A stretch of 64,000 nucleotides of DNA, taken from NCBI RefSeq assembly GCF_028368995.1, contig NZ_JAQNDL010000001.1, positions 672,001-736,000 on the forward strand. The letters are read 5' to 3'. A program made the translations under genes and the position numbers. Shown here in pieces: positions 1 through 31,765 of the stretch. The notes under the pieces were generated by a model. The model saw only the letters and a list, made by a program, of their open reading frames with translations, was not told the DNA's origin and ran no database searches. Origin of the DNA: Nannocystis bainbridge. Lineage in GTDB: Bacteria > Myxococcota_A > Polyangia > Nannocystales > Nannocystaceae. Positions within the stretch are counted from its first letter, which is position 1. Each line of letters starts with the position of its first letter.

Positions 1-2
1 TC

Positions 3-3000
3 GGCTTCACCGGCCGCCCGGGCCCCGGCGGCAACAACGTCCATCAGCAGCTCACCACCTGGATCGCCGCGCTCGGCACCGCGAACGGGCGCAAGTTCTA
101 CGTCCTCGGCCGCACCGACGACCTCAAGCTCAACGGCAACAAGGCCGAGAACGACACCTACAACAACACCCTCGCCACCCGCCGCGCCGAGGCGGCCCGT
201 GACGCGCTGATCGCCGCCGGCGTCGCGCTCACCGACATCACCATCGCCATCGAGTCGGCCGGCTTCGGCTCGCCGCCGGCCGGCAGCCCGCCCGCGCGGT
301 TCTCCGGCGCCCGCCGCCTGGCCTTGCCGTGGCCGCAGTCGCCGACGTTCGCGGCCACCGCGTTCCCGGTGTGGAACCGCAAGTGGAACGCGGACAGCAC
401 CACCGATCGCAGCGCCGCGATCAACGACTCCAACCGCCCGCCGTACCGCTGCGCCGAGATCTACGTGGTCGACACCACCGCCCCGCCGGCGCCGGGGCCC
501 GTGATCCCGGGTCCGGGCGTGCCGACGCGGTTCCTCGTGCCCGGCCCCGACGGCGCCCCCGATCCGGGCGTCAGCTCGACCACCACCAAGCCGCCGCCGA
601 CCGACTACCGCGTGCGCCTGCGCGTCAAGTGGGACAGCCCCACCGTCGTCAGCCCGGCCGACGCCATCCCGACCGAGGCCGAGGCGCTGGTCGCCTGGAA
701 GGCCGCGCAGATCGAGCTGCCCGCGAGCACCAGCGGCAACCCGCCGCCGCTGCCGCCGCCGACCGGGCCCGATTACTGGGAGCTGCTGCTGCGCTGGGCC
801 TACGACGCGCGCAGCGGCCAGACCGAGGCCAGCGGCGCCCTCAGCCTGCCTGACGGCGCGCTGACCTGGCAGAGCGACGCGCTCGCCGGGGCCCTCGCGT
901 TCGGGCCGGTGATCACGGCCCTGGCCGACCCCGCCGACGTCGTCGACGGCGCCTTCGGTCAGTTCGTCGCGGCCGCGGCGATCCTCGCCGTCGGCGCCGC
1001 CATCGGCGAGCTGCTCAACACCGGCAGCGGCCCCGAGAGCAGCGTCGACATCGACAAGCTCGCCATCTCGTACAAGTGGAACGGCGCCGCCCAGGTCGCC
1101 GCCACCGTCGACTACACGATCGACCTGCGGATCAACGTCAGCGTCGCCGGCGCGGGCTCGCTGACCGGGCACCTGCGCATGCGCTACAAGGGCGTCGGCC
1201 TGCGCTTCGCCGGCAAGCCCGAGGGCGGGCTCGCCGGCGTCGCCCTGACCTACGACAGCATGAGCGTCGAGGTCGTCGACCCCGGCACGTGGAGCCTCGG
1301 CGGCCCGCTCGGCAACCTGATCCGGATCGCCGCCTCGCGCATGGGTCACGGCTCGCAGTGGATGGAGTTCGACCTCGAGTTCGCGCTCGACCTCGGCGTC
1401 GTCCGCCTCGAGGGCGCGACCATCCGCGTCAACCTGCCCGACGAGAGCGCCCCGTTCAAGGTCGAGTTCCGCGGCCTCACCGCTTCGATCGACATCCCCG
1501 GCGCGCTCAAGGGCAAGGGCTCGGTCACTCTCGGCGACGGCGGCTCGTTCCGCGCCCTGCTGTCGCTCGAGGTCATCCCGGCCAAGCTCAGCGCCTACGG
1601 GGCGCTCGCCGTCGACCAGGACTTCGTCTCGGTCGAGGTCGGCGTGCAGCTCCCGGTCGGCATCCCGCTCGGCGCCACCGGCTTCGGCATCTTCGGCTTC
1701 ATCGGCCGGTTCGTCGCCAACGGCACCCGCAACCTCGAAGGCCTCACCAACCCCGAGCCGGTGCAGCGCCAGCTCGACTGGTACACCCGCGCGCCCCAGC
1801 TCAAGTACAAGCGCAAGTCGGGCCAGTACGCCTTCGGCGTCGGCGCCGTGGTCGGCACCCTGCCCGACAGCGGCTTCACCTTCAACGCCGAGGGCTCGCT
1901 GACGATCGGCTTCCCCGACGTCTCGGTGATCTTCGGCATCGACGCCAAGCTCGTCACCCAGCGCAAGAGCGCCGCCACCGAGTCGGGCACGGCTGCCCCT
2001 CCCGGCGGCCTGCGGATCCTCGGCATGGTCCTGATCGAGCCCGACTCGATCATGATCGGCGTGCGCGGCTCGTACGACATCCCCAAGGTCCTCAAGCTCG
2101 AGATCCCGATCTCCGCCTACTTCCCGCTCGCCGGCGGCGACGCCTGGTACATCCGGATCGGCTCCGACAACCACGCGACCCGCCCGGGCAACCCGGTCTC
2201 CATCATCCTGCTGCCGACGATCCTCGACGTGCGCGCCTGGGCGTTCGTCATGATCGAGGAGCGCCAGCTCCACGGCCTCGGCGGCACGCTGGTCCCGCTC
2301 GACCTGGCCCAGCCGCTCGACTTCGACGGCTTCTCGATCGGCATGGGCGCGGGCTTCGACCTCAAGTGGTCGGCCGGCCCGTTCAAGCTCGAGATCAGCG
2401 CCTTCTTGCTGGTCGGCCTCGGCACCAAGCCGCTGCTGTTCGCCGGCGCCGCCGGCATCAAGGGCGAGCTCGACCTCGTGCTGATCTCGGTCGGCGTCGA
2501 CGGCCTCGTGCATTTCCACGTGTCGCCCGGCTACAGCTACTTCGAGGGCCACTTCTGCGGCCACGTCGACCTGTTCTTCTTCGAGATCTCCGGCTGCGTC
2601 GACATCCGGATCGGCGACGACCCGCCGTCGAACATCCCGGTGCCCGAGTCGCCGATCGCCGGCATGGACCTGTGCGACCACCTCGCGGTCGTCAAGGGCG
2701 CCGCGGCGCGCAACGGCGTCGGCGCGGCGCCGACGGTGTGGCCCGACACCATCGCCGTGCTGCGCTTCGCCCACTACGCCCAGGACGGCCTCGGCGGCAC
2801 CGCCGACTTCGAGCGCCGGCTGGCCGCTCCGGCCGCGCTGTCGCCGTGGAGCGGCTCGACCGAGCTGAAGTACGCCTTCCGGCTCAAGCAGGTCACGCTG
2901 TGGAGGCTGACCGGCGCCGACCCGAACAACGCGGCGCACTACACCCACGTGCCCGGGCCGTTCGACGCCGCCTGGTGGATGCCGTCGTGGCGCAAGTCGA

Positions 3001-5585
3001 TCATCGAGGGCGGCGACAACACCGGCCCCAGCACCGAGGAGGGCCGCGAGCTCGGGCTGTTCAGCTGGGACCCGCGCGCCTGGTCGCGCTGGCTCGGCGA
3101 GGGCTCGCAGGAGGTCCCCGGCAACCCCGGCAACACCGTCGAGCACCTTTGCGACGAGGTCGCCGCGGCGGGGCCCTCGTGCGCCTACGGCCGCGCCCGC
3201 GTCTACGCGTACGGGGTGCTCGGCGCCTTCACGGCCGAGCCGCCGGCCGGCGCGGTGTTCCCGAGCCGCTTCAAGCTGTTCGCCAGGTTCGCCGACGGCC
3301 TCGACGCCGGCATGCTGGCCGGCCTCGGCGCCGACGCCGGCTGGACCTGGATCCCCGGCGCCGTCGCCCCGCTGCACGGCGCCATCGACCTCCACGGCAC
3401 CGTACTCGAAGAAGGCTGGCGGTTCCCGTCGTGGCGCGCCGTCGGCAAGATCGTCGGCACCGCGCCGATCGTGCTGCCGCTGTCGAAGCCGCTGCTGGAG
3501 GGCGAGCTGGTGCTCGAGGTCTGCAGCGACAAGGAGACCGCGGTCATCACAAGCGGCGTGTGCGACCCGATGCCGAGCGGCGACGGCCTGATCGAGGGCT
3601 TCGTCGGCGCCTCGAAGACCAAATATTCCGGCAGCTCGCTGCAGCCGGTCCTCATCGGCCAGGTGTGGGCGCTGCGCCTGCTGAAGAACGTGCTCGAGGG
3701 CCAGTACCCGGGCACGATCGACGCGGTCGCGGTCGACGTCGACCCCAACGGCAGCACCGCGACCCTGACCGCCTACGGCCCCAACAACGTGGTGCTCGGC
3801 ACGGCCCAGACTGTCGGCGCCGGCCGCCAGTGGCTGCGGATCGAGGCCCCGGGGATCGTCAAGATGCGCCTGACCGGCGAGAAGCAGCCGGTTCTTTACG
3901 AGGTCTGCTGGGGCCGCAAGCGGCCGATCCTCGACCTCGTCCCGTTCAAGCCCAGCGAGTGGCCGCGGGTGATCGCCATCGACATCCACGACAAGCAGAC
4001 CGCGCTCGAGCCCGAGGTCCTCAAGGGCGACGGCGAGTGCCCCAAGGTCCGCTACAAGCTGCCGCAGAGCGACGGCTGGACCCGCCTCGAGGTCGCGCCG
4101 TGGAACCGCGGCGACGTCGCCCTGGTCGCCCTGTGCGGCGTGACCATGGAGGCGCGCGCCGCCCAGCAGGCCGAGGTCGACTACCGCGCCTCGCTCGTGA
4201 ACCTGCTGCAGCTCTGGGTCGCCGCGGCGCTCGACAACAAGCCGACGCACAAGACCTACCTCGAAGACGCCGCGACCTACGAGATCCGGGTCGAATGGCA
4301 GTACCAGGGCTTCCGCCCCGCGAGCCCCGGCCAGGACCCGCCGCCGCCGAGCGCCGGCGGCTGGCTCGACCCACCCGGTTTGCCCGAGCGCTACCGCTTC
4401 AAGACCGCGGCCTTCGGCCTGGCCGCCGCGCCGCCCGCGGTCCAGAGCTCGAGCCTCGAGAACCCGGCCCAGGGCGGCCCGGGCTTCGACGAGCGGACCT
4501 TCGATCCTCGCGGCGTCGCTCGCTACCTCACCCGCGCCGCGCCCTCGCACGAGGATCCGCCGCATTTCCTCGACGACCACGCCGGCTTCTGGTTCATGGT
4601 CGATCACCTCGAGTCGCTGGTCGACAAGTACGACCGCACCTTGCAGGTCAAGGTGCTTCACACGCGGCCGCCGGCCGGCTCGATCGACCCGGCCGCCTCA
4701 CATCCCTCGGGCGGCCTGCACGTGCTCGACGTGACCGTCGCCGTCGAATGGAAGGTCGACACCAGCACCTGGTTCCTCGCCGATCAGCAGCTCGTCGAGG
4801 CCGTCGTCGCCGCCCCGTGCGTCGGCGGCACCCCGGCCGTCGGCTCGTCCTCGGTGTCCGTCACCGCCGACCTCGAGCCGCGCACCGAGTACGACCTGCT
4901 GCTCAACGCCGCGCCGAAGATCGTCGACGCGTTCCCCGAGGTCCCGATCGCCCGCAGCCACTTCCGGACCTCGCGCTACCGCAACCCGACCGAGATGTTG
5001 CGCGCCCTCGGGTTCGCCACCCCGGTCGGCCTGTCCCCGCCGAACGACGCCCTGATCGTCGCCCCGCTGCCCGCTGGATCGCTGGCGATCGGCGACACCG
5101 AGCTCGACGCCGCCCTGACGGCGCTCGGCCTCGACCCGTGGCCGCTGCCGCCCGCCCCGCGCACCACCCTGCTGTGGCAGCAACCGGCCGCGCCGAACCA
5201 GCCCTGGCGCATCGCCGGTGTCTTGATCGAGGCCGACGAGCCGGTGTGGCGCGCCGGGCTGCGCACCGGCGCCCTCAATCAGCCGACCCCGCCGCCGCGG
5301 CTCGAGGTGATGAGCCTCCAGCTCCACCGCACCTTCGAGCAGCTGGTGCCCTTGCCAGCGCCGCCGCACCTCGTCACCGCGCGGGCCCTGCTGGCCTCGC
5401 TCACCGAGCGCGTCCGCAACGCCGCGGGCACCCGCTGCATCTTCACCGCCAACGCCCCGATCGCCATGACCGGCGGCCGCATCTACGACCTCGAGCTCAG
5501 GTTCCGCGAGAACGGCAGCCCGGGCGCCATCGGGGCCGCGCCGCTCGTCGACCGCCCGCTGTTCGTGCTGGAGGAGGGCGACTGA
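3..5585 (+). CDS. Giant uncharacterised protein, 5'-truncated (>1860 aa), with OmpA-like domain followed by long Gly/hydrophobic beta-strand region (DUF6603-like)
   Basis: Frame is open from base 3, upstream of the track's TTG at 324. It reads FYVLGRTDD...YNNTLATRRAEAARDALIAAGV...YRCAEIYV, matching OmpA_C GHTD..YN..LS.RRA.AV...L...RRVEI. Strong GC3 codon bias. Confidence 0.85.
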   Translation, partial: GFTGRPGPGGNNVHQQLTTWIAALGTANGRKFYVLGRTDDLKLNGNKAENDTYNNTLATRRAEAARDALIAAGVALTDITIAIESAGFGSPPAGSPPARFSGARRLALPWPQSPTFAATAFPVWNRKWNADSTTDRSAAINDSNRPPYRCAEIYVVDTTAPPAPGPVIPGPGVPTRFLVPGPDGAPDPGVSSTTTKPPPTDYRVRLRVKWDSPTVVSPADAIPTEAEALVAWKAAQIELPASTSGNPPPLPPPTGPDYWELLLRWAYDARSGQTEASGALSLPDGALTWQSDALAGALAFGPVITALADPADVVDGAFGQFVAAAAILAVGAAIGELLNTGSGPESSVDIDKLAISYKWNGAAQVAATVDYTIDLRINVSVAGAGSLTGHLRMRYKGVGLRFAGKPEGGLAGVALTYDSMSVEVVDPGTWSLGGPLGNLIRIAASRMGHGSQWMEFDLEFALDLGVVRLEGATIRVNLPDESAPFKVEFRGLTASIDIPGALKGKGSVTLGDGGSFRALLSLEVIPAKLSAYGALAVDQDFVSVEVGVQLPVGIPLGATGFGIFGFIGRFVANGTRNLEGLTNPEPVQRQLDWYTRAPQLKYKRKSGQYAFGVGAVVGTLPDSGFTFNAEGSLTIGFPDVSVIFGIDAKLVTQRKSAATESGTAAPPGGLRILGMVLIEPDSIMIGVRGSYDIPKVLKLEIPISAYFPLAGGDAWYIRIGSDNHATRPGNPVSIILLPTILDVRAWAFVMIEERQLHGLGGTLVPLDLAQPLDFDGFSIGMGAGFDLKWSAGPFKLEISAFLLVGLGTKPLLFAGAAGIKGELDLVLISVGVDGLVHFHVSPGYSYFEGHFCGHVDLFFFEISGCVDIRIGDDPPSNIPVPESPIAGMDLCDHLAVVKGAAARNGVGAAPTVWPDTIAVLRFAHYAQDGLGGTADFERRLAAPAALSPWSGSTELKYAFRLKQVTLWRLTGADPNNAAHYTHVPGPFDAAWWMPSWRKSIIEGGDNTGPSTEEGRELGLFSWDPRAWSRWLGEGSQEVPGNPGNTVEHLCDEVAAAGPSCAYGRARVYAYGVLGAFTAEPPAGAVFPSRFKLFARFADGLDAGMLAGLGADAGWTWIPGAVAPLHGAIDLHGTVLEEGWRFPSWRAVGKIVGTAPIVLPLSKPLLEGELVLEVCSDKETAVITSGVCDPMPSGDGLIEGFVGASKTKYSGSSLQPVLIGQVWALRLLKNVLEGQYPGTIDAVAVDVDPNGSTATLTAYGPNNVVLGTAQTVGAGRQWLRIEAPGIVKMRLTGEKQPVLYEVCWGRKRPILDLVPFKPSEWPRVIAIDIHDKQTALEPEVLKGDGECPKVRYKLPQSDGWTRLEVAPWNRGDVALVALCGVTMEARAAQQAEVDYRASLVNLLQLWVAAALDNKPTHKTYLEDAATYEIRVEWQYQGFRPASPGQDPPPPSAGGWLDPPGLPERYRFKTAAFGLAAAPPAVQSSSLENPAQGGPGFDERTFDPRGVARYLTRAAPSHEDPPHFLDDHAGFWFMVDHLESLVDKYDRTLQVKVLHTRPPAGSIDPAASHPSGGLHVLDVTVAVEWKVDTSTWFLADQQLVEAVVAAPCVGGTPAVGSSSVSVTADLEPRTEYDLLLNAAPKIVDAFPEVPIARSHFRTSRYRNPTEMLRALGFATPVGLSPPNDALIVAPLPAGSLAIGDTELDAALTALGLDPWPLPPAPRTTLLWQQPAAPNQPWRIAGVLIEADEPVWRAGLRTGALNQPTPPPRLEVMSLQLHRTFEQLVPLPAPPHLVTARALLASLTERVRNAAGTRCIFTANAPIAMTGGRIYDLELRFRENGSPGAIGAAPLVDRPLFVLEEGD

Positions 5586-5628
5586 TGCCGACGACCACGC
5601 TTCCCACCCCCACCGCGCAGGAGTCACG

Positions 5629-8600
5629 ATGAGCAGCATTCAGGCCCCCGTGTGGGCGTTCCATGCCGAGGCGATCGACGGCGTCGGCGACACGCACCTC
5701 CCGATCGGGATCCACGTCCGTGCCCTGCCGTCGGCGCGCCTCGGCCTGCCTGCCGCGCCGCTGGTCGTGTACCGCGCGGTCCTCGACCTCGACAAGTTCA
5801 AGCACCTCGTGCACGACGGCGGGGTCACCTGGATCGACAGCCACGGCGAGCCGCGCACGATCCCGTTCGAGGTCACCCCGGACAACCCGGTGTACGGCTA
5901 CTTCCCGGCGCCCGACGTGTTCTGGGCCGAGCTGCAGGCCGAGCCGGGTGACAAGCTCGACCCGCCCAAGCCGCCGCCGTTCAAGGACATCGGCGAGCTG
6001 ATCAAGGGCGAGTTCAAGGACGAGAAGGAACTCGAACATTTCGTCGCCACGATCGACCCGATCCTCGGCGACCAGCAGCAGCCCGCGGGCGTGCTGCGCT
6101 TCGAGGCGCTGACCAGCACCGGCGTCGGCTCGGCGCCGATCCTCTCGCGCTCGAGCGAGCGCTACGCCCTCGCCGCGTGGACGATCCAGCGCGTGCGCGT
6201 GGTCGGCAAGGGCAGCGTCAAGGGCATCCGCTGGCTCGACGACGCCGCGCTCAAGAAGGCCCAGATGGGCGATCAGCTGTGGCAGGTGTGGAGCCTGCCG
6301 GTCAAGCAGAAGGCCCGCTACATCCCGACCGCCAACGCCGAGTCGGAGGCCAAGGATCGGGTTCATCGCGCCGGCGCGACCCGCCTGCCCATGTACGTCG
6401 CCCACACCGCGACCGCCCCGGTGACCGCCCCGTCGGCGATCCCCGACGACGCCATGGTGCGCGTCGATCAGGTCCGCAGCGAGATCGATCGCTGGCTCGA
6501 CCTCGTGCTCGACGACACCAGCGTCGAGACCTGGCAGGTCACCGACAAGCAGGACGTCGACGGCAAGGACGGCGACATCCGCGTGCCCGTCGAACCATTC
6601 ATCCTCGCCGGCGCCGTCGACCCCGACGTCGGCCATTTCCTCGGCTTCGGCGACGTCGACACCAAGCCCCCGGCCGGCGCCGGCTCGCTGGTGTTCTACC
6701 GCGTGCGCGGGCTGTGGCGCTGGCGCGCCAAGCAGTGGAACTCGGCCCAGCAGCAGTCGTTCGCCGCGGCCGTGCGCGCCGACAGCAAGGCCGTCCAGGC
6801 CAGCTTCCCCGAGCTCACGGAGTGGGGCATCGGGCCCAAGGAGAAGGGGCCGTTCGTCGACCTCCACGCCACCGCGGTCGCGTTCGTCGGCACCCCGCCC
6901 GAGCTGCCGCCGGCGATGACCTTCGACAGCGCCGAGGACCGCGGCTGGCTCGCCGAGCCGCCGCCGCCCCACGTGCGCCGGGCCCTGCGCCTGCTCGCCA
7001 GCAAATTCCGCCCGCACGCCGTCGCTGCGCTCGCGGCCACCGACGTCCGCGGCGACCGCACCCTGCACGCGTTCCCCAAGTACGGGCGGCTCATCGTCGG
7101 CGAGCCGCTGCCGCCGGGCCTGCCGCTACCGCTGGTGGTGTCGCGCCCGATCGATCAAGGCGGCCCCGGCGAGGGCCGCTTCGAGGAGCGCGACGCCCCC
7201 GCGGGCGCCGTGTTCTACCGCCTCGCCGAGGGCGACTGGTTCGGCCGGTGGTCGCCGTGGCGCACGCTGCTGGCCCCGGCGAAGGCCCGCACGCCGCCGA
7301 TGCGCCCGGTCATCGAGATCTACCCTGAGCCGCCGACCGTCGCCGAGCCGGTGCAGACCGGCCCGCTGCACGGCACCATCACCCTGCGCATCCCGATCCC
7401 CCGCGTCTCCGAGCTGCCGCCCGGCGGCGCCCACCTGGCCAGCCTCGAGCTCGACGAGACCTTCGAGGGCAGCCCCACCACCACCGTCAGCTACATCCTC
7501 GCCAGCCCCGCGCCGGCCGTGATCGACACGGATCCGCCCACGCCTGACATGCTGCGCATCGTCCGTGACGGCCCCGACCTGCCGCGCTGCGGCTCGCGCA
7601 AGGTCACCTACACCGCCCGCTGGTTCGACGTGCTCGGCCTCGTCTCGCCCGACGCCCTGCCGGCCCAGCGCACGATCACCGACCCGCGCCCGCCGCCCCC
7701 GCCGCCCGTGATCACCGAGCTGCGCTGGACCGCCCGGCCCGACGCCGAGGGCCACGCGCGCGTCGACCTCGACTTCACCACCACCGTCGGCACCCGCTAC
7801 CGCGTGTTCGCCAGCAACGAGACCCTGCTGCTCAAGGCGCTGCAGCAGGGCGGCCACGTCACCGCCCGCAACGAGATCCTCGCCGCCGAGCCCGGCGCCC
7901 CGCGGGCCGAGAAGTTCAAGCAGTACAAGGCGCTGTTCGGCTGGGACCACTTCGAGGGCCTGACCAAGCAGCCGATCGTCGCCACCGGCACCACCACCCG
8001 CTTCGTCCACCGCGTGTCGGGCTCGCTCGAGGTGCTGGTGATCTACCGCGTGCTCGGCGAGGGCCCCTCGGGCGCGCTGTCCGAGATGTCGCAGGCCGAC
8101 CTGGTCCCGTTCGCGGTGCCGAACCTCGGCCCGCCGACGCGGCCGCAGGTCGCCGTCCTCAACGCCGGCCTCGATCCGACCACCGACGGCGTCAAGCTGC
8201 GCGTCAAGGTCCCGCGCAGCAAGGCCGCGCCGAAGGCCTGGCGCCTGCGGCGGACCAGCACGCCGACCCGCGAGTCACTCGCCATGCGGATCGTCGACAC
8301 CGGCCCGGTGAGCGGCGCCGAGGTCGACGGCGAGGGCACGAGCTTCGACATCCTCGCCGCCGCCCCGCTGAAGCCGTGGCGCATCTACAAGTTCGCGGTC
8401 GAGGTCCAGGCCGACGACCCACCCGGCGCGCCGACCGTCGGCGTGATCCTGCCCGGCGAGTGGAGCGAGGCCAGCGCCGCGGCCACGGTCTCGGCGATCC
8501 CGCCGGACCCACCCGCGGCCGCGTCCGGCATCGTGGTTCAGAACATCCCCGGCGCGCTGCAGATCACCCTCACCCACCCGCACGCCGACGCGCTGGGCGG

Positions 8601-8808
8601 CACCCCGCTCGGGCCGCACCGCTTCGAGCTGTGGCGGGTCCAGCCCGACGCGCGCCCCGAGCGACGCGAGGTCGCGTTCATCCGCGGCGCCGGCGACACG
8701 TGGATCGGCACCGACCCCGGCGAAGCGCCCGCCGGCACCTACGTCACCGTCTCCATCCTCGACCCCGTCGGCCGCCGCAGCGACGCCGCGCTCTCCAACC
8801 AGATCTGA
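5629..8808 (+). CDS. Large uncharacterised protein with probable Fn3/Ig-like beta-sandwich modules (1059 aa)
   Basis: GGAG RBS; 43 nt after previous stop; motifs VFYRVRGLW, YRLAEGDWFGRWSPW, YKFAVEVQA..GEWSEAS; no signal peptide. Confidence 0.85.
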   Translation: MSSIQAPVWAFHAEAIDGVGDTHLPIGIHVRALPSARLGLPAAPLVVYRAVLDLDKFKHLVHDGGVTWIDSHGEPRTIPFEVTPDNPVYGYFPAPDVFWAELQAEPGDKLDPPKPPPFKDIGELIKGEFKDEKELEHFVATIDPILGDQQQPAGVLRFEALTSTGVGSAPILSRSSERYALAAWTIQRVRVVGKGSVKGIRWLDDAALKKAQMGDQLWQVWSLPVKQKARYIPTANAESEAKDRVHRAGATRLPMYVAHTATAPVTAPSAIPDDAMVRVDQVRSEIDRWLDLVLDDTSVETWQVTDKQDVDGKDGDIRVPVEPFILAGAVDPDVGHFLGFGDVDTKPPAGAGSLVFYRVRGLWRWRAKQWNSAQQQSFAAAVRADSKAVQASFPELTEWGIGPKEKGPFVDLHATAVAFVGTPPELPPAMTFDSAEDRGWLAEPPPPHVRRALRLLASKFRPHAVAALAATDVRGDRTLHAFPKYGRLIVGEPLPPGLPLPLVVSRPIDQGGPGEGRFEERDAPAGAVFYRLAEGDWFGRWSPWRTLLAPAKARTPPMRPVIEIYPEPPTVAEPVQTGPLHGTITLRIPIPRVSELPPGGAHLASLELDETFEGSPTTTVSYILASPAPAVIDTDPPTPDMLRIVRDGPDLPRCGSRKVTYTARWFDVLGLVSPDALPAQRTITDPRPPPPPPVITELRWTARPDAEGHARVDLDFTTTVGTRYRVFASNETLLLKALQQGGHVTARNEILAAEPGAPRAEKFKQYKALFGWDHFEGLTKQPIVATGTTTRFVHRVSGSLEVLVIYRVLGEGPSGALSEMSQADLVPFAVPNLGPPTRPQVAVLNAGLDPTTDGVKLRVKVPRSKAAPKAWRLRRTSTPTRESLAMRIVDTGPVSGAEVDGEGTSFDILAAAPLKPWRIYKFAVEVQADDPPGAPTVGVILPGEWSEASAAATVSAIPPDPPAAASGIVVQNIPGALQITLTHPHADALGGTPLGPHRFELWRVQPDARPERREVAFIRGAGDTWIGTDPGEAPAGTYVTVSILDPVGRRSDAALSNQI

Positions 8809-8815
8809 GGTCCCG

Positions 8816-11800
8816 ATGGCCATCACGCTGAATCCTCCGATCGACAACCTCGGCATCATGGCCCCCGTCCTCGGGCCATGGTTCTCCGCGGCCGACGTCA
8901 ACCTCGGCGTCCCCGACCCCGCGCAGCGGCTCGGGCTGACCGTCGATTTCGCCGCCGACACCGACTGGTTCGCGCCGGCGACCGGCACGCTCAGCCTGTT
9001 CGTCACCGGCGGCGCCACCCCGGCGACCCTCGACGCGCTGCAGGACAGCAGCGGCGCGTTCCCCTTCCCGGCCGGCCGGATCGTCGCCTACTTCCGCCTG
9101 CTGCCCGAGGTCGAGGCCCGGCTGCACGCGCTGGTCGGCCTCGTGCCCGCCGCGACCGCCAACCCCGTCACCGATCCACCGACCGCCGCCGCCGCGCCGA
9201 CCCGCCCGCAGGTCCGCAGCCTGGCGATCGTGCTGCCCGCCGCGACCCCGCTGACGCCCGCCGGCCTCTACCCGTTCTTCGGCGGCGAAGGCGACATCCC
9301 CGGCGGCGACCCGGCCGAGAAGATGGCCGCGATCGGCCTCGCCCTCAATGGCGGCAACCTCGTCAACGCGGCCCTGCCGATGACGTGGTTGCGCCGGCCC
9401 GGCGGCGCCGCGGGCGACCGCGACGTCCTGCTGCAGGACCTCAACGGCGAGGTCCAATTGTGGGCCTTCGATCGCCGCGGCCGCGCCATCGATCCCGGCG
9501 CCGTCGCTTGCTGGTGGTCGTGGTTGCTGGCGACCGCCGTCGGCGACGACCCGGCCACCGGCGACGCCGACATCCAGCTGCTCGCGCCCGACATCGAGGC
9601 CAATGATTATCCGCAGCAGGGCGGCGGACCGGTGGTCGTGCAGTTCGCCGCCCAGCGGACCGCCCACCTCGTCGACGCCCACGAGGGTCCGCTCGCCGCC
9701 CCGTTCCTCGGCGGTCGCCTGCAGGTCGACGGCGCGGTCGCCAACGACGCGCTCGTGCTGGTCGCCGACAACGACGACATCGCCTTGACCTTCGCCGCCC
9801 TGCCCGCGCCGGGCACCCCGCCGACGGCCGACAACCCGCAGGTCGACGACGCCCCGCGGGCCCGCATGGCGGTGCTGCCGACCGGCAACTACGGGACCAC
9901 CGCGACGCTGTGGCCCGGCGGACCGGTGCACGCCGGCCTCACGCGAGACTTCGTGCGCGTGGCCGTGGTCGACGAGGAGCGCCACCTGGTCGGCCTGGCC
10001 CGCCGCGACAGCCGCGAGGACGCCACCACCACCGAGGAGCGCCTGCGGTCGGCCCAGAACCGCCCGAGCACGCGCATCGAGGTCCACCGCACCAGCACCC
10101 CCGACGGCGTGCTGCTGACGCACTCGCAGGCCGCCGCCGACGCCCTGCTCGCGGTGCCCAACACCGACGACCCGTCGCGCCTGGTGCTCGGCCTCGGCGA
10201 TTTCGCGTGGGGCGGGGCCCCGAGCGCCGCGGCCCCGACCCCCGGCGCGGGCCCGCTGCCGACGACCCTCGCCGACAGCGGCGCCGCGGTCCCGACGGCC
10301 GGCCAGTACCGCGTGCGCGCGCTGACCGGCGGCGGCGCGCTGGCCCAGGATCAGCAGACCGTGCTCGTCGAGGTCAACCTCGGCACCGCCTGCGCCGGCG
10401 CGTGGGTGCGGGCCTGGCCGCTCGGCTTCAACCTCGAGGTCGGCCTGCATTTCCGCACCACCGGCGGGGCCGGGCGCGTCAATGCGGCCGGCGTGGCCCA
10501 GTTCACGATGGTGCTGCTCAACGGCACGCTCGGCGCCAGCGGCCTGCTCGGCATGGACACCCTGGTCCTGCTGCCCGACAGCACCGGCGCCGTCGCGGCC
10601 CAGCGCCGCTACGCCGACCGTCGCTTCGCCCGCCCCGCGCCGGTCGGCGGCATCGCGGCGACCACGATCGCCGGCGACTGGGTGGTGTGCGAGACCGGGG
10701 CCACCGGCTCCGGCGCCCTGCCGAACGGCGCGGTGCCCCCGGGCGGCCACGTGGTGCTGCTGACGGCCACGCCGACGATCGTCGATCGCACCGCGATCCC
10801 GGCCGCCGCGTGGGACGCCGACACCTTGCGCAACCGCCTGCAGGCGACCGACATCGTGTCGCTGACGTCGCCCGCGTTCGGCTCGACCCCCGATCGCGCC
10901 GACGTGCTCGGGCGCCCGCTGCCACGCACCCCGACGGCCGGCGGCAACCCGCGCGGCGGCCTCGACACGATCGTCGGCAACCGCCTGCACTACTTCGATC
11001 GCCTGGCCGTCGGCCTGACCTCCGCGTCGTCGACCCCGTACTCGCTGCTCGACCGCCTCGAGGTCGCAGCGGCCACTGTCGGCGACGACGCGGCGACCGC
11101 CGTCATCGGCACCGCGCCGCCGGTTCCGTGGGCGCTCGAGTCGGCCCGCGAGTTCTTCCTCGGTCACCCCGGCGTGCCGGCGGCGATCGAGCTCCACGGC
11201 ACCGGCGTGCGCCTCACCGGCGCGCCGGCGGTCGCGGTCGCCGAGTACGTGCGCGAGCGGACCGCGGGGCTGTCGTTCGCCGAGGTCCAGGCGCTGGTCG
11301 AGCCCGACCGTTCGGCGACGATCCAGAGCGAGCTCGCGGTGGCGGCCGAGGCCGTCACGGCGCTGCCGACGATCGCCGACGGCGCCGATCCGGGCCCGGT
11401 GGTCGCGGTGCTGCGCACCACGGCGCTCGGCATGGAGGGCCGCCCGGGCGTCGGCTACGATGCGGTCGACGACGAGCAGTTCCCCTTCAGCGAGCATGAG
11501 GACGAGCTCGCAGACTGGCTCGACGACAACATCCCGGTCGAGGGCGCCGCCGGCACCGCCCTGCGCGACGCCGTCACCGGCCCCACCGCCTCGATCACCC
11601 GCGCCCTCGACCGCCGGATCCAGACCGCGGCCTCCGGCGCCCGCGAGACCCTCCAGGCCCTGCTCGCGGCGATCGATCGCGCCCAGGACTTCGTCTACGT
11701 CGAGACCCCCGCCGTCGACGCCATGCCCATCGATCACGGCGGCGACAACGTCGAATGGTGGACGCGGCTGGTCGCCCGCATGGGCGCGCGCCCCGGCCTG

Positions 11801-12397
11801 CGCGTGATCCTGTGCGTGCCGAGCCTGCTCGGGCCCGGCACGCCGAAGCGGCTGCAGGAGGTCCGCGACCACTGCCTGCTCACCGCCGTCGACGCCATGC
11901 GGGCCACCCGCGGCGATCGCTTCGCGCTGTTCTCCCCGGGCGCCGGCGCCGACCGGGCCGTGCGGTTCACCAGCACCTCGGTGGTGATCGACGACGCGTT
12001 CGCGCTGACCGGCACGACCCACCTGTGGCGCCGCGGCCTGTCGTGGGACTCGTCGCTGGCGGCCGCGGTGTTCGACGAGCGGGTGATCGACGGCCGCCCG
12101 CAGGATGTCCGCGCGTTCCGGATCCAGCTGCTGGCCGACCGCCTGGGGATCCCGACATCACGCGTGCCCGACGACCCGGCCGAGCTGGTGCGGGCGATCC
12201 GCGAGCTCGACGCCCGCGGCAGCAACCGCCTGTCGGCGATCCCGATCGCGCGCCCGAGCGACACGCCGCAGAACGCCGACATCGACGCGTGGAACGCCGA
12301 CGGCAGCAAGGACGACCTGGACCTCGCCAGCGTCGCGGCCCTGCTGATGGCGTTCATCGCCCTCACCGACGTCGACCACGCGATCGTCGAGGGCTGA
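8816..12397 (+). CDS. Large protein with C-terminal phospholipase D-like domain, HKD motifs degenerate (1193 aa)
   Basis: ELHGTGVRLTGAPAV, ARETLQALLAAIDRAQDFVYVETP and FTSTSVVIDDAFALTGTTHLWRRGLSWDS align with PLD WHD....GPA, AI..A..FIYIE and HSKxxxxDD...GSAN..RS...D; 7 nt after previous stop. Confidence 0.85.
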   Translation: MAITLNPPIDNLGIMAPVLGPWFSAADVNLGVPDPAQRLGLTVDFAADTDWFAPATGTLSLFVTGGATPATLDALQDSSGAFPFPAGRIVAYFRLLPEVEARLHALVGLVPAATANPVTDPPTAAAAPTRPQVRSLAIVLPAATPLTPAGLYPFFGGEGDIPGGDPAEKMAAIGLALNGGNLVNAALPMTWLRRPGGAAGDRDVLLQDLNGEVQLWAFDRRGRAIDPGAVACWWSWLLATAVGDDPATGDADIQLLAPDIEANDYPQQGGGPVVVQFAAQRTAHLVDAHEGPLAAPFLGGRLQVDGAVANDALVLVADNDDIALTFAALPAPGTPPTADNPQVDDAPRARMAVLPTGNYGTTATLWPGGPVHAGLTRDFVRVAVVDEERHLVGLARRDSREDATTTEERLRSAQNRPSTRIEVHRTSTPDGVLLTHSQAAADALLAVPNTDDPSRLVLGLGDFAWGGAPSAAAPTPGAGPLPTTLADSGAAVPTAGQYRVRALTGGGALAQDQQTVLVEVNLGTACAGAWVRAWPLGFNLEVGLHFRTTGGAGRVNAAGVAQFTMVLLNGTLGASGLLGMDTLVLLPDSTGAVAAQRRYADRRFARPAPVGGIAATTIAGDWVVCETGATGSGALPNGAVPPGGHVVLLTATPTIVDRTAIPAAAWDADTLRNRLQATDIVSLTSPAFGSTPDRADVLGRPLPRTPTAGGNPRGGLDTIVGNRLHYFDRLAVGLTSASSTPYSLLDRLEVAAATVGDDAATAVIGTAPPVPWALESAREFFLGHPGVPAAIELHGTGVRLTGAPAVAVAEYVRERTAGLSFAEVQALVEPDRSATIQSELAVAAEAVTALPTIADGADPGPVVAVLRTTALGMEGRPGVGYDAVDDEQFPFSEHEDELADWLDDNIPVEGAAGTALRDAVTGPTASITRALDRRIQTAASGARETLQALLAAIDRAQDFVYVETPAVDAMPIDHGGDNVEWWTRLVARMGARPGLRVILCVPSLLGPGTPKRLQEVRDHCLLTAVDAMRATRGDRFALFSPGAGADRAVRFTSTSVVIDDAFALTGTTHLWRRGLSWDSSLAAAVFDERVIDGRPQDVRAFRIQLLADRLGIPTSRVPDDPAELVRAIRELDARGSNRLSAIPIARPSDTPQNADIDAWNADGSKDDLDLASVAALLMAFIALTDVDHAIVEG

Positions 12398-12411
12398 TAC
12401 GCGGAGCTCCG

Positions 12412-12443
12412 GGCGAGGCCTGACCGAAAGGACAGGTCTCGCC
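12412..12443 (+). terminator. Hairpin downstream of the giant operon (possible terminator or stabiliser)
   Basis: GGCGAGGCCTGACC-GAAA-GGACAGGTCTCGCC imperfect stem with GAAA loop; no U-tract. Confidence 0.45.
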
Positions 12444-12783
12444 CCGCGCCGTCACGACTCGCACTCGAGCTCCGCCTCGAAGCGGCGAGTCGACATGGGC
12501 AGAACGTCTACTACGACCGCGCCTCCCGCCTCTCGGTGACCCACGGTCGGTCCCGCCCGGACATGCGCGCCGGCAGCCTGCCGTTCACGCCTGAGCCGGC
12601 ACCTGCGCAGGCGCCCCTGCGCGCATGTCCGCGTGCGAGTCCGAAGTGAGCCTCGATCCCGACCCCACGCCGCCCGTTCGCGCGCGGCGCAGGCCCGGTT
12701 CCGAGCCGATCCTGCGGCGAGCACCGCACGTTGATCGCCGCCGACCGCGAATGTAAAGATCGTCGGCGACGGAGGGTAGAGGG

Positions 12784-13215
12784 GTGAGTACATCGAGTGT
12801 GGCATCCAAGGCGCAGAGCGACAGCGGCTACAGCGCGGACTCGTGGATCGACGTTCGGCTCGAGCCGATGACCAAGCTGTGGCAGGGCATCGGCGGGGAG
12901 AGCAACTTCTTCCTCAGCGAGAACGACGCCCGCGAGGCGCGGGGGGCTTACCAGGACGCGCGCGGCTACAAGTTCGCCGAGACGCTGTGGCGGCTGGCCC
13001 AGGTCCAGCCCAACGCCGTGCACGGCTATCGCCTCGGGATCCGCGAATTCGTGGTCGACCTGCCGACCCCGGCCGCCTGTGCGGTCTGCGTCGCCAACAC
13101 CAACCTGGGCAGCGGCGGCGTCTTCCAGTACTACATCGTCGACTGGAAGAACTACCTGTTCGAGACCGGTCGTCACTTCCACTTCGGCAGCGCGAGCTGG
13201 CGCGGCACGATCTGA
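12784..13215 (+). CDS. Small protein resembling a stand-alone polymorphic-toxin (TNT/ART-like) domain
   Basis: GGAGG upstream, good codon bias; AQVQPNAVHGYR...ANTNLGSGGVFQYYI recalls the G.GG..QY tail of TNT-like toxin domains. Confidence 0.6.
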   Translation: MSTSSVASKAQSDSGYSADSWIDVRLEPMTKLWQGIGGESNFFLSENDAREARGAYQDARGYKFAETLWRLAQVQPNAVHGYRLGIREFVVDLPTPAACAVCVANTNLGSGGVFQYYIVDWKNYLFETGRHFHFGSASWRGTI

Positions 13216-13242
13216 CGCCAGCGCTCGCGCCATCGGAGCAGG

Positions 13243-13400
13243 GCGCGTCGCTCCGGCGCGAGCATCCGGGCGCGCGCCGCATCGCCGGCGTGCGCACCCT
13301 GACGCGGCACGTGCGGCGCATCGCGGCGCGTCGCTCCCATGCGAGCATCCGGGCCCGCGCCGCGTCGCCGACCTGCACGACCTGGCGCATCGCGGCGACC
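13243..13400. repeat. Imperfect intergenic tandem duplication (unit about 83 bp)
   Basis: GCGCGTCGCTCC...GCGAGCATCCGGGC.CGCGCCGC.TCGCCG...GCGCATCGCGGCG starts at 13243 and 13326. Confidence 0.65.
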
Positions 13401-13468
13401 GCTCGAGCGCGCGACGGCGAGGCGCCGTCGACACGCATCGAGCTCCATGAGACTCGCTCTGCCGCGAC

Positions 13469-14569
13469 TCAGGGCGAGAAGCCGCAGCCGTCAAGGTTGT
13501 CGTAGAGCGCCATGCTGCCCTTGAAGCCGTTCGCCTTCATCAGCGCGTGCGCCATCTCGGCGTTGCCGCACCACAGCTTCTTGTTGTGGCCGAAGTACGC
13601 CGTGCTCTTCGGCAGGAACGCCGCCACGTCGAGGACGTCGACCAGCTCGCCGTTGTATTCGAAGCGGATCTCGCCGTCGATGGTCGCCGCGCCGAGCCCC
13701 ACGAGCGACTCGATCCCGTTGCCGGAGACCTTCACGCTGCCGCCGACGAAGCTCAGCGCCCCGAGCCCTTGCAGATCTTTTAATGAAGGGTGGCCGATCA
13801 GCTCGAAGCGGCCGAACCCCTGCGGCGTGGCCCCGATCGAGGTCAACTTGGCGAGCGCGTGCAGGCTCGCCAGCGGCGCGTTGGCCTCGATGACGAGCTG
13901 ACCGCCGACCTCCTCGAGGCTGTCCAGGCCGTCGAGGCTCGCAAGCGCCGTTTGCACGATCTCGAGATCGCCGCCGACCCGCCGCAAGCACTGCAGCCCG
14001 GCCAGGCTCGTCAAGCCGGGCGCGTGGATCGTCAGGTCGCCCGTGATCTCCCCGTAGGCCGCGAGCGCCGCGACGTCGAGCGAGTTCTCGATCGAGAACG
14101 ATCCGCCCAGCACCTCGAGGTCGGGCGCGCAGTCGATCGGTTCGCCGGTCGAGCCCTCACCCGTCGAGCTGTCCTCGCTCGTCGAGCCCGTCGTGCTGTC
14201 CTCGCCCGTCGAGCTCTCGCCCGTCGCGCTCTCGCTCGTCTCCCCCGTCGAGCTCACCTCGCTCGTCGAGCTCTCGCTCGTCTCCCCGCTCGAGCTGCCC
14301 TCGCTCGTCTCGCCGCCCGAGCTGCCCTCGCTCGATTCGGAGTCCGGCGTGAGCGGGGCGGTCGACTCCTCGGTGGTCGAGGTCGTCGGCCCGGTGGCGT
14401 CGGAGCCCTGCGAGCTCGTGCTCGCGTCAGTCGCCTCCGTGGACGCCGTCTCGGTCCCGGTCCCGCTCTCGCCGGGGCAGGCCGCGAAAAGACTCAAGCC
14501 GGCGGTCAGCACGAGCGAGTCGAGCGCGAGGGCGCGGTGCGACGATGACGATAGGGTCAGCCTGGTCAT
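13469..14569 (-). CDS. Lipoprotein with Ser/Thr/Glu stalk and receptor-L-domain-like leucine-rich repeats
   Basis: Lipobox LFAAC; GETSESS repeats; ITGDLTI..LTSLAGLQCLRRVGGDLEI..LASLDGLDSLEEVGGQLVI. Confidence 0.8.
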   Translation of the reverse strand: MTRLTLSSSSHRALALDSLVLTAGLSLFAACPGESGTGTETASTEATDASTSSQGSDATGPTTSTTEESTAPLTPDSESSEGSSGGETSEGSSSGETSESSTSEVSSTGETSESATGESSTGEDSTTGSTSEDSSTGEGSTGEPIDCAPDLEVLGGSFSIENSLDVAALAAYGEITGDLTIHAPGLTSLAGLQCLRRVGGDLEIVQTALASLDGLDSLEEVGGQLVIEANAPLASLHALAKLTSIGATPQGFGRFELIGHPSLKDLQGLGALSFVGGSVKVSGNGIESLVGLGAATIDGEIRFEYNGELVDVLDVAAFLPKSTAYFGHNKKLWCGNAEMAHALMKANGFKGSMALYDNLDGCGFSP

Positions 14570-14972
14570 AGGATTCTCCTGAGCGCGGAAATAGTGGGTG
14601 CGGCGGCGCCTCGCTCGAGGCGACCGCGCGCGGCCGGTGGGTTTTAAAAAGTAAGTCGCCGCCTCCCGGCCGTTCCGTCACGGCCGCGCCGGAGCCGGCC
14701 AAAACGGCGCCACAGCCCGCAGGAGCCCCCCCTGCGACGTCAAGCGGGCCAGGACCGCCGCGCCGCGGGTCCGAACCGAGACGGATGCCACCTGCATCCG
14801 TCGCTCCCGCAATGACGCGAACTCGGCGGGTGGCTGCACGCCGCGGCCGCTGCCAGCAATGGCGCGACGGCTCGCGGCCCGGGCGACGCACCCCGCACGC
14901 GGTGGATCGGCCGCCCGCGCTTCAACTTTGCCCGGCGCCCTGCTATGCAGGCGCGATGCTCGGAGGCCTCCG

Positions 14973-16364
14973 GTGAGCTACAGCGGCGCCCAGGTGTACT
15001 TGCCTCGCGGCCCCACCGCGGCCGCGATCGCCAGGTGGCTCGCGGAGCGGCTGCCGGACGCCGAGGTCGAGCGCTCCAGCAGCCGGATCGTGCTGCGCCT
15101 GCTGGGCGCCGAGCTCGCGCTGGCGATCGACCGCGCGCCGCACGTGCGGGTGGAGGCGCAGGAGCTCGCGGAGCGGGCACCCGCGGGCGCCGCCAGGCTG
15201 CTGCGCCGCGCGACGCGACGGATCGAGATTTTGCCCCGCGATCCCCGGGCCGACGTCGACGACCTTTACGACGCGTTGCTGCTCGTCTTCGAGACCCTGC
15301 GCGGCATGCCGGAGGTCGTCGGCTTCGACCCGTTCGACGGCGCGTTTTATTGCGCCGACGCGCTCGCTACCGGCGCGGAGCCCATGATCGTGTATCGCGT
15401 CGCCGACCTGCCCGAGGGCCTCGCGCTGGACCTGCCGGCGGACGCAGGACCTCGCGGGTGCTTGTTCTGGATCCACCCGCCCGGCGGCGCCGCGTGCGAG
15501 GCCTTGATGGCGGCGCTGCCCGAGCCGGAGCTCGATCATGTCGACGAGGGCCTGGCGCTCGCCACCCTCGTCATGAGGCTCGGCGGCCGCGGGGGCCGCC
15601 TCGCGGCGATCGTGCCGCCCAGGCTCACCGACGGCGAACCGACGTGGGGCCTCGGCTTCCACACCGGACCCGCCGACGTCACCGAGCAGTTCCTGCGGGC
15701 CGCCGGCCACGACCTGCGCCCGGCCTCGCAGATCCTCGACGGGCTCGCCATCGTCGAGGTGCGGGCCGCCGACGACTCGCCGTGCTCGCAGCTCGTCGAA
15801 CGCACCGTGTGCGACGGCCGATTGCGCCTCGGTGTGCTCCGCACGGCCGGCCGCGGGCTGTTCACCGTCGAGGGGCCGGCGCAGCGCTGGGCGCTGCTCG
15901 ACCGCGAGCGCCGCGAAATGATCGAGCGCGAACTGCCGCCCGCGGGCGTCGTGACGGACATCAAGCTGCGCCCGGTCGCCCCGCGCCGGGCAGCGCGGAC
16001 CCGCGACGCGCTGGAGCGTCTGTGCCGCGAGCACGACCTCGCCGCGCCGGAGCCGGAGATCGGCGCCACAGTGCTGCGCCTGCTGCCGCACGCGGTGCTC
16101 ACCGCGGGCAGCTGGGACGGCCCCGCGGCGGACATCAAGGCCCTCGCCCGTCGCAAGCTCGGCGGCGAGTGGCTGGCGGTGATCGCCGGCGCGTGGGTCG
16201 AGCGGATGTTCCACGACGGCCCCGTCGCGGCGAACCACATCGATCTGTTCACCGCGATCGACGGTTGGCTCGAGCAGGCGATCGGCCGCGAGGCGCTCCG
16301 CGAGGCGACCGTTCGCGCCCTCGAGCGCATCGATCACAGACCACCGGCGCGGGCCAGGACCTGA
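14973..16364 (+). CDS. Hypothetical protein (about 463 aa)
   Basis: GTG at 14973 preceded by GGAGG, in frame with track ORF 14859; protein-like composition; no family recognised. Confidence 0.65.
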   Translation: MSYSGAQVYLPRGPTAAAIARWLAERLPDAEVERSSSRIVLRLLGAELALAIDRAPHVRVEAQELAERAPAGAARLLRRATRRIEILPRDPRADVDDLYDALLLVFETLRGMPEVVGFDPFDGAFYCADALATGAEPMIVYRVADLPEGLALDLPADAGPRGCLFWIHPPGGAACEALMAALPEPELDHVDEGLALATLVMRLGGRGGRLAAIVPPRLTDGEPTWGLGFHTGPADVTEQFLRAAGHDLRPASQILDGLAIVEVRAADDSPCSQLVERTVCDGRLRLGVLRTAGRGLFTVEGPAQRWALLDRERREMIERELPPAGVVTDIKLRPVAPRRAARTRDALERLCREHDLAAPEPEIGATVLRLLPHAVLTAGSWDGPAADIKALARRKLGGEWLAVIAGAWVERMFHDGPVAANHIDLFTAIDGWLEQAIGREALREATVRALERIDHRPPARART

Positions 16365-16437
16365 AGGCCCGCGCCGTCGCGCCTCCCATGGCGCGACGCG
16401 ATCGGTCGTCGAAGCCCACGTGCGCCGCCGCCGAAGG

Positions 16438-18417: not shown

Positions 18418-18610
18418 CGCGTCGACTCGTGGCGTCGAGGATGCCACCCCGCGCCAGCGCGAGGCTCGCGTGCCCCGGATCCGCGGCGCAACGGTTCGCA
18501 CGCGCGGGCGCGACCGCTCGGCCGCGCCCCGAGAGCGCGTGCGAGCGCACGCGGCCTGGCGCCGCGTCCACCCGCGAGCGCCTCCGCCTGAGCCCGGCTC
18601 TCTCCGCGCG

Positions 18611-18880
18611 TCAGACCTGAAAGTAGTTCTGCCAGGCCTGATACAGCAAATCACGGATCGCCTGCGGGACAGCGCCTCCGCCGCGGTGGCTGAAGACCCC
18701 GGTGTACCCGTAGTAGTAGTATTCGTTGTCGTTCGTCGCCATGTGATCGTCGCCCGGATTGTCGACGTGGCGGCTGAAGTGGATGTTGGCGAAGGTGGCG
18801 ATGACGTTGCAGACGTAATAGACCCAGTTCCCGGTGAGGTTCTCCAGGGAGTTCGTGATCTTCCAGTCGGTCATGCTCAT
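18611..18880 (-). CDS. Small aromatic-rich hypothetical protein (89 aa)
   Basis: GGAG RBS, strong codon bias, follows 18917-19237 gene on the same strand. Confidence 0.75.
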   Translation of the reverse strand: MSMTDWKITNSLENLTGNWVYYVCNVIATFANIHFSRHVDNPGDDHMATNDNEYYYYGYTGVFSHRGGGAVPQAIRDLLYQAWQNYFQV

Positions 18881-18916
18881 GGCTGCTGCTCCAAGCGCGG
18901 GCTCGCGTCGGCCCGG

Positions 18917-19237: not shown

Positions 19238-19536
19238 TGTTCCTCGTGGTTGGCAGCAATATGTACCCGCGGCCGACCAGGCGCCGCTGGCGGAAACAGC
19301 CTGTCGTGCGCCCGACGACACCGCCCGCGCGCAGCCGCCCGCGCCACCGCAGCCGTGCTGCAGCGCGCCCCGTTCGTGACGATCGCGGCGAAACTCCCGC
19401 TCCGGAGCGGAATGCGACCCCCGCCGACGCTTGATTCGCCGCGTCGCCCGATTGGCGACACCGACCGCGAACCTTCGAGCAACCGAGGCCCACGCCTCCG
19501 TCGCCGAGGGCTCTGCAGCCCTCGACTGTCACATCC

Positions 19537-29108: not shown

Positions 29109-29124
29109 GGCGACCGGGCCGATC

Positions 29125-31749: not shown

Positions 31750-31765
31750 GCTCGCTCCGTCCGCC

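Follow-up and report, generated by a model that had tools for sequence, protein, structure and literature searches.

The 64,000-nucleotide (nt) stretch of the Nannocystis bainbridge genome analysed here (contig NZ_JAQNDL010000001.1, positions 672,001 to 736,000 of the forward strand; G000:C1:672001-736000; referred to as the window) begins with three very large genes that form one conserved, self-contained unit. We call this unit the cassette and its products proteins 1, 2 and 3. No described system that we found matches the three-gene cassette. Its distribution indicates that it is a horizontally mobile module. Our preferred reading, which we hold tentatively and rate somewhat short of an even chance, is that of a wall-anchored, membrane-engaging assembly, at the surface or released, with a non-catalytic head that has the phospholipase D (PLD) fold. 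The coordinates of all features are collected in Table 1.

A first-pass annotation, made from the letters of the window alone, had reported three closely spaced genes on the forward strand with gaps of 43 and 7 nt between them, and the list of open reading frames (ORFs) gives the same arrangement. Gene 1 is open at the 5' end of the window, and the annotation had suggested retrieving the upstream sequence. In the whole-genome sequence (11.05 Mb, guanine-cytosine (GC) content ∼72%) the gene begins with an ATG at G000:C1:670065, which is 1,935 nt before the window and gives a protein of 2,506 amino acids (aa). It is preceded by ∼770 nt of non-coding DNA and then by an aminotransferase gene. The GC content at the third codon position is 0.96–0.97 for each of the three frames, and the ratio of nonsynonymous to synonymous substitution rates (dN/dS) is 0.24–0.51 for genes 2 and 3 when compared to two relatives. 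Based on these two measures we consider the three ORFs to be real genes. Scans of the cassette for promoters and terminators gave nothing exceeding the shuffled sequences.

Relatives of protein 3 were collected by a scan with one genome per species, which resulted in 155 stretches, and 66 loci were kept. We compared the three proteins to these loci using tblastn and observed identical gene order and strand for all three genes in 53 of the 66 cases. Of the other 13 loci, five start inside gene 2, seven start inside gene 3 without any DNA upstream, and one contains gene 3 alone. This last locus was found in Herbidospora solisilvae, where the relative of gene 3 (L036:10001-13009) follows 10 kb of upstream DNA without gene 1 or gene 2; no protein of the gene 1 class was matched in the genome. 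The expectation that the three genes would be syntenic elsewhere is thus borne out, and neither side adds a further conserved gene. Downstream, the biggest cluster of ORFs across loci comprised 12 loci and the next one only four, and in the 12 kb upstream of gene 1 no ORF was common to the six genomes compared, which included another Nannocystis (blastp, 1e-6). We also assigned Pfam families to 130 downstream ORFs from 28 loci and encountered largely unrelated housekeeping genes; genes of the restriction, STAND, transposase or RHS type occurred only here and there.

The gene junctions are short or overlapping at other loci as well, with a GTGA overlap in L033, L038 and L049. In one metagenome-assembled genome (MAG) of the Acidimicrobiia gene 2 continues in frame into gene 3 without a stop codon (L051:7142-13366), to be explained either by a genuine gene fusion or by misassembly. 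An apparent fusion of genes 1 and 2 in L049 was rejected as an artefact, as an open alternative frame explains it. No fused forms of protein 2 were found among longer proteins, which is weak evidence. In Ornithinimicrobium cavernae a 3,138-aa RHS/PKD protein (L040:13457-22870) is encoded immediately downstream of the cassette.

In a large protein collection we detected 105 relatives of protein 3 and 68 relatives of protein 1 (∼2,400–2,700 aa). Where the source names them, they are called 'hypothetical protein' or 'OmpA family protein'. According to the record titles the loci belong to at least eight phyla: Myxococcota, Pseudomonadota (alpha, beta and gamma), Actinomycetota, Chloroflexota, Bacteroidota, Acidobacteriota, Gemmatimonadota and Nitrospirota. 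One relative in the protein collection is named from Planctomycetota. The profile matched in 8 of the 61 related genomes searched, with the host genome counted; of the 10 congeneric genomes besides the host, 4 had a match. Gene 3 is 78–81% identical to its counterparts in named Nannocystis genomes and 65–69% identical to the copies in Acetobacteraceae and Methylibium, and the identity drops to 35–36% for Corallococcus and another Nannocystis MAG. In several hosts the GC content of the operon is higher than that of its flanks, e.g. 0.747 compared to 0.638 in L060. The patchy occurrence, the identity pattern and the GC offset together indicate horizontal spread of a self-contained module.

Divergent copies were also encountered. 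The congener G158 carries a second, divergent cassette (L107 and L108, G158:C1:392001-430000) at joined coordinates 6303-20022, in which the order of genes 1, 2 and 3 is kept; the profile E values are 3e-98, 8e-28 and 9.5e-55. Locus L109 (G187:C78) shows ORFs similar to genes 2 and 3 at the end of a contig (5226-13123). In another genome of the genus gene 3 was matched in two pieces (G156:C1:566066-569652), one of them with an internal TGA; the gene may have a frameshift or be a pseudogene.

For protein 3 we obtained an AlphaFold2 model with a predicted local distance difference test score (pLDDT) of 91.3 and a predicted template modelling score (pTM) of 0.93, based on 69 aligned relatives. 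The top Foldseek matches were plant and human PLD with an E value of 6e-12. Using VIA-align, residues 392–1160 of the model were superposed on human PLD2 (7svp_D) with a Z score of 28.0 and a root-mean-square deviation (rmsd) of 3.3 over 417 residues. The Z scores for plant PLD alpha (6kz9), Pseudomonas PldA (7v55) and vaccinia F13 (9fhk_B) were 24.3, 22.0 and 22.4. We conclude from these structural matches that the two-lobed PLD fold is complete in protein 3, which in addition carries an N-terminal extension of ∼390 residues and a large beta-rich insertion separating the two lobes. In the model the N-terminal part consists of beta-rich domains and the whole protein is compact. The first-pass annotation had stated that protein 3 ends in a PLD fold. 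The fold itself is present; however, it is two-lobed and takes up aa ∼390–1160 and not the end only, and the catalytic signature is missing. The sequence searches for this fold were negative: there was no match to the Pfam families PLDc and PLDc_2 in protein 3 at E ≤ 0.1, a six-frame search of the host genome with PF13091 gave 10 places of which none is within the operon, and the profile of protein 3 had 0 matches in the PDB. The ESM Atlas reported PLDc at 0.82, which is a weak lead only.

The signature of the PLD superfamily is HxK(x)4D, with a catalytic His and Lys in each lobe. We determined the register of the C-lobe by using hhalign to align protein 3 with a protein from this genome that resembles cardiolipin synthase, though the probability of this alignment is low (0.39%). 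The position of the catalytic His (1052) is occupied by Ala in 56 of the 69 relatives and by His in none of them (Ala or Thr), and the position of the catalytic Lys (1054) by Thr in all 69. The Asp (D1059) is kept in 69 of 69 relatives and the Asn position is a His in 68. There are no alignment columns with Lys in at least 80% of the 69 sequences, and His reaches this level only at 284, 289, 794 and 1069. For the N-lobe we identified two candidates for the signature, and candidates only: L866-R-T868, in which L and T are invariant, and H794-G-T796. The divergent G187 copy has a His at the His position of the C-lobe and a Ser at the Lys position. As the C-lobe His and Lys positions are replaced in the aligned relatives, the canonical HKD chemistry has been lost. 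The earlier suggestion of a PLD-type cargo, if read as an active phospholipase, is not supported by the same columns. The invariant Arg (R1047, R1072, R1073 and others) would be compatible with the binding of an anionic ligand.

Protein 1 contains the OmpA-like peptidoglycan-binding domain which the first-pass annotation had proposed, and it appears to be real but diverged. The Pfam model OmpA (PF00691) scores 17.3 bits at aa 673–728 with a cut-off of 27.2. Among 19 relatives of gene 1 it matched 8 at E ≤ 0.1 and none reached the cut-off. The family profile, on the other hand, found OmpA C-terminal domains in the PDB at E values between 1.8e-6 and 1e-4 (aa ∼606–746). R683, N700, L703 and R707 do not vary across 30 relatives, and D686 hardly does. 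These residues align with the corresponding ones of OmpA (TD ... NxxLxxR), of which we take the Asp and Arg to be the ligand-contacting residues of the OmpA-like domain. Further along the protein, the hydrophobic Ala/Gly-rich helix has a Kyte-Doolittle mean of 1.92 over 19 residues and forms the protein-wide hydropathy maximum in 24 of the 30 aligned relatives.

The best-conserved part of protein 1 (aa ∼1070–1535, 40–94% identity across loci) is the Gly/hydrophobic beta-rich stretch that had been noticed after the OmpA-like module. The first-pass annotation had named DUF6603 (PF20248) as a family to search for, and this guess holds as remote homology only. We compared protein 1 to an alignment of seven myxobacterial DUF6603 proteins with hhalign. 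The full alignment of protein 1 gave a probability of 58% (E 9.9e-5, 379 collinear columns) and the alignment of the core alone 76% (E 2.2e-5, 389 collinear columns), compared to ∼0.1% for proteins 2 and 3 as controls. The Pfam DUF6603 model matched neither P0004 nor 18 other gene 1 relatives at E ≤ 1, nor any other place in the host genome. In a second set of 18 core-bearing proteins we observed one sub-threshold match to the model, for P0270 (E 5.2e-4, 19.2 bits), in the same register. For protein 1 the ESM Atlas gave a cluster of which 16% carries DUF6603 (at 0.83), again a weak lead only. These comparisons suggest that the core of protein 1 is remotely related to DUF6603.

A search with the core profile returned 1,278 cluster representatives at E ≤ 1e-3, of which 388 were found at ≤ 1e-30. 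The core-bearing representatives fall into two length classes of ∼2,200–2,960 aa and ∼1,650–1,860 aa. In the shorter class (P0267–P0320) the core is located at aa ∼450–950 and the alignment with gene 1 starts at ∼aa 800 of the latter; these proteins therefore lack the N-terminal part and the OmpA-like module. Among 251 Actinomycetes genomes searched for the shorter class, five were matched with frames of 1,404–2,472 aa and none in the range of the class; one of the five is an already-known carrier of the cassette.

The C-terminal region of protein 1 is marked by ten conserved Cys. C1498, C1511, C1696, C1706, C1820, C1992, C2024 and C2252 are present in all 30 relatives and C1833 and C1948 in 28 of them. 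The conserved Cys are limited to the C-terminal 60% of the protein, several of them are spaced 10–13 residues apart and the first 1,000 residues contain only 0–4 Cys. The extreme N-termini of two of the proteins are also strongly kept, even at an overall identity of ∼33–40%: G6, L10, D11 and L12 are nearly invariant in protein 1 (P0004, aa 1–20), and P17 and W22 are invariant in protein 3 (P0003, aa 1–25). Both could be docking or recognition peptides.

The beta-sandwich motifs reported earlier for protein 2 turned out to be five FN3-like domains. The AlphaFold2 model (pLDDT 87.8, pTM 0.62) was computed with 49 aligned relatives from the loci, and the domains at aa ∼427–550, 553–687, 688–830, 832–960 and 965–1059 were identified from Foldseek matches to FN3/Ig arrays and from VIA-align. 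We obtained Z scores of 10–11 for aa 427–686, 553–687, 688–960 and 832–1059, and the tandem matches span aa 427–1059. The single domains at aa 553–687 and 832–960 were superposed with an rmsd of 2.2–3.4 over 92–110 residues. The Pfam model fn3 has no match in protein 2. No structural match was found for the N-terminal 420 residues, though long lists of FN3 matches crowd the output. In a viral structure library the matches of protein 2 were limited to FN3 arrays of a generic kind in phage tail proteins, with template modelling (TM) scores of 0.1–0.19. A predicted complex of aa 2100–2506 of P0004 and aa 1–420 of P0002 received a score of 0.00 and a mark of 0.32, which is uninformative on binding either way.

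The statement of the first-pass annotation that the operon corresponds to no system it could name agrees with our library searches. For proteins 1 to 3 Pfam gave nothing except the sub-threshold OmpA match in protein 1, NCBIfam gave OmpA-type matches only, far under the cut-offs, PHROGs gave 0 matches and PADLOC-DB 2.0 gave 0 families at E ≤ 1; the PDB search for protein 3 was equally empty. The three proteins have no domains in common (hhalign, probability ≤ 0.5%). The literature searched contained no mention of DUF6603, and a broader search returned nothing relevant to the cassette.

We compared the cassette to four kinds of known systems. The first are the uncharacterised giant-protein cassettes of DUF6603, which also consist of giant leaderless proteins in multi-gene cassettes; the core of protein 1 aligns with DUF6603 at the probabilities given above. 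However, the profiles of proteins 1 to 3 find nothing in five myxobacterial DUF6603 loci, and the six large neighbours in two of the myxobacterial loci are unrelated to proteins 2 and 3 (profiles, probability ≤ 1.1%). The gene content therefore differs, and only a remotely related core domain appears to be in common. With two-lobed PLD enzymes (human PLD1 and PLD2, plant PLD alpha, Pseudomonas PldA and the degenerate vaccinia F13) protein 3 shares the fold, but it differs in the missing catalytic His and Lys of the C-lobe, in having no conserved Lys and no Pfam PLDc match, and in its N-terminal extension and inter-lobe insert. The remaining two likenesses are by analogy only. Tc (ABC) toxin complexes are likewise encoded in one operon as three large leaderless proteins, and judged by the sizes of the Tc subunits the first protein of ∼2,500 aa is comparable. 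The cassette differs from them in that no family or fold in common was detected, neither Pfam families of TcA, TcB or TcC nor RHS repeats occur in proteins 1 to 3, and protein 3 has a PLD fold and not a cocoon. In adhesins of the intimin/invasin type a wall-binding module and a beta-rich domain close to the membrane are combined with an Ig-like stalk and a head at the distal end. The part plan of the cassette is similar to that of these wall-anchored stalked adhesins, but its parts are distributed over three polypeptides, it has no signal peptide and it is also present in single-membrane bacteria.

In our preferred reading of the cassette as a wall-anchored, membrane-engaging assembly, the three genes would encode one self-contained protein assembly acting at the cell envelope. 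We infer the action at the envelope from the wall-binding module, the FN3 stalk, the conserved Cys pattern, the lipid-enzyme fold and the hydrophobic helix. Protein 1 would be the scaffold and its OmpA-like module would grip the peptidoglycan, while the proline-rich spacer and the hydrophobic helix would connect this module to the DUF6603-like beta-rich core and then to the C-terminal half with its disulfide-type Cys. Protein 2 would dock with its N-terminal domain and its five FN3 domains would form a stalk. Protein 3 would be the globular head, which probably binds and does not cleave a phosphate-bearing ligand, e.g. a phospholipid head group. This presumes that the three proteins form one complex, that the PLD-fold head would bind without cutting and that the proteins would be exported non-classically or set free from the cytoplasm by lysis. 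More doubtful is the broader claim that the cassette represents an undescribed class of three-component envelope machine, horizontally spread over at least eight phyla and present at the surface or in the medium without a classical export signal, in which a DUF6603-type scaffold, an FN3 stalk and a rewired PLD head would engage the membranes of other cells (antagonism or predation) or the bacterium's own envelope.

Several observations weigh against the wall-anchored assembly. Signal peptides are missing from all three proteins: no N-terminal 19-residue window reaches a Kyte-Doolittle value of 1.5, from which we conclude that a classical signal peptide is absent. The first-pass annotation had said so for proteins 2 and 3 and the hydropathy profile of protein 1 gives the same picture. 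An LPxTG motif near the C-terminus was found in 0 of 14 actinobacterial relatives. The hydrophobic helix is not flanked by Lys or Arg, and as these positive charges are missing it may merely be buried in the fold. The conserved Cys could bind metal and not form disulfides, and the four conserved His of protein 3 (284, 289, 794 and 1069) together with its many invariant Arg leave room for a non-canonical active site. Furthermore, recurrent secretion, lysis or phage genes are absent among the 130 downstream ORFs with Pfam assignments.

Part of this evidence would fit a released particle resembling Tc toxins or bacteriocins, which would be assembled in the cytoplasm, freed by lysis of a subpopulation and directed against other cells; protein 3 would be its active payload and use non-HKD chemistry. 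The missing signal peptides, the single operon for three large proteins of which the first has ∼2,500 aa, the combination of a wall-binding module, an FN3 stalk and a lipid-enzyme fold, the patchy, horizontally spread distribution and the generic likeness of the FN3 arrays in protein 2 to phage minor tail proteins all speak for such a particle. We nevertheless consider it unlikely: Tc toxin Pfam families (TcA, TcB or RHS types) are found in none of the three proteins, holin, endolysin and phage genes do not adjoin the cassette in the window or among the downstream ORFs of the 28 loci, and the PLD fold is without its canonical catalytic residues. The same lack of catalytic His and Lys, and of any nucleoside triphosphatase (NTPase) or nuclease domain, argues against a cytoplasmic conflict system, in which the giant proteins would sense an invading phage or plasmid and the PLD-fold protein would act on nucleic acid or membrane. 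Some defence systems contain PLD-fold nucleases, and the patchy distribution with horizontal transfer, the absence of export signals and a few loci located beside restriction or STAND genes (L060, L012) are in line with such a function. However, PADLOC gave no matches, defence or mobile-type neighbours were observed at only a few of the 28 loci whereas the others have housekeeping genes, and the wall-binding module, the FN3 arrays and the paired conserved Cys are atypical of cytoplasmic proteins. We regard a conflict system as quite improbable.

The first-pass annotation had also proposed a lipid-transfer bridge of the AsmA/TamB type with a repeating beta-groove; in such a bridge the Gly-rich beta stretch of protein 1 would form a hydrophobic groove. 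A long Gly/hydrophobic beta-rich region after a wall-binding module and a partner protein with a lipid-enzyme fold would suit this proposal, but it is left without sequence support, as AsmA, TamB and related Pfam families are absent from the 19 gene 1 relatives at E values up to 1 and the beta-rich region aligns with DUF6603 instead. The cassette also occurs in single-membrane Actinomycetota and encodes no signal peptide. We consider a lipid-transfer bridge very improbable.

Overall the cassette amounts to ∼14 kb of coding sequence that is conserved in soil and water bacteria from many phyla and is under purifying selection. We found no family for it and no relative with a solved structure, and the literature searched does not mention it. 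If the cassette does encode an envelope machine, bacteria would have a new way of getting very large proteins out of the cytoplasm. The cassette would also provide a first functional handle on the DUF6603 superfamily, given the number of cluster representatives retrieved with the core alone, and an ancient pseudo-PLD in which Thr replaces the catalytic Lys would join the known uses of the PLD fold.

Table 1. Features of the cassette and of the spike island, with positions in the window and residues of the respective protein.
Feature	Position in window	Residues	Strand	Remarks
Gene 1	1..5585 (ORF 3..5585, open at 5' end)	2,506 aa (P0004)	+	3' 5,585 nt within window; giant putative scaffold protein
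OmpA-like peptidoglycan-binding module	1..305	∼634–747 (first 13 residues precede window)	+	Sub-threshold Pfam match and family profile
Proline-rich spacer	462..764	∼800–900	+	24 Pro per 100 residues
Conserved hydrophobic Ala/Gly-rich helix	936..1022	∼958–986	+	Candidate membrane-interacting segment
DUF6603-like Gly/hydrophobic beta-rich core	1347..2639	∼1095–1525	+	hhalign against DUF6603 alignment
Cysteine-bearing C-terminal region	2556..4820	1498–2252	+	Ten conserved Cys
Gene 2	5629..8808	1,059 aa (P0002)	+	ORF
N-terminal alpha/beta domain of protein 2	5629-6888	1–420	+	AlphaFold2 model
Five FN3-like domains of protein 2	6907-8805	∼427–1059	+	Foldseek, VIA-align
Gene 3	8816..12397	1,193 aa (P0003)	+	ORF
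Two-lobed PLD fold of protein 3	9989-12295	∼390–1160	+	AlphaFold2, Foldseek, VIA-align
C-lobe remnant of PLD signature	11954..12049	1047–1078	+	R1047, T1054, D1059, G1066, R1072, G1074 and D1078 invariant
VgrG (Phage_GPD + Gp5_C)	27147-29105		+	Spike island
ORF without family assignment	29125-31239	705 aa	+	Spike island; directly after VgrG
PAAR protein	31769-32833		-	Spike island
DcrB-like protein	32853-33503		-	Spike island

Other genes in the neighbourhood were recorded as well. The region at 27147-33503 of the window is an orphan type VI spike island, which is not kept beside the cassette at other loci. Upstream of the window, on the reverse strand (L001:5112-9413), we found a gene for a 1,433-aa protein with Ser/Thr kinase, cyclase, AAA_16 and TPR domains. 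At 53870-57960 of the window a C39-peptidase ABC exporter (54784-56988, reverse strand) is located between two HlyD-type genes, and this arrangement resembles a bacteriocin-type export set.

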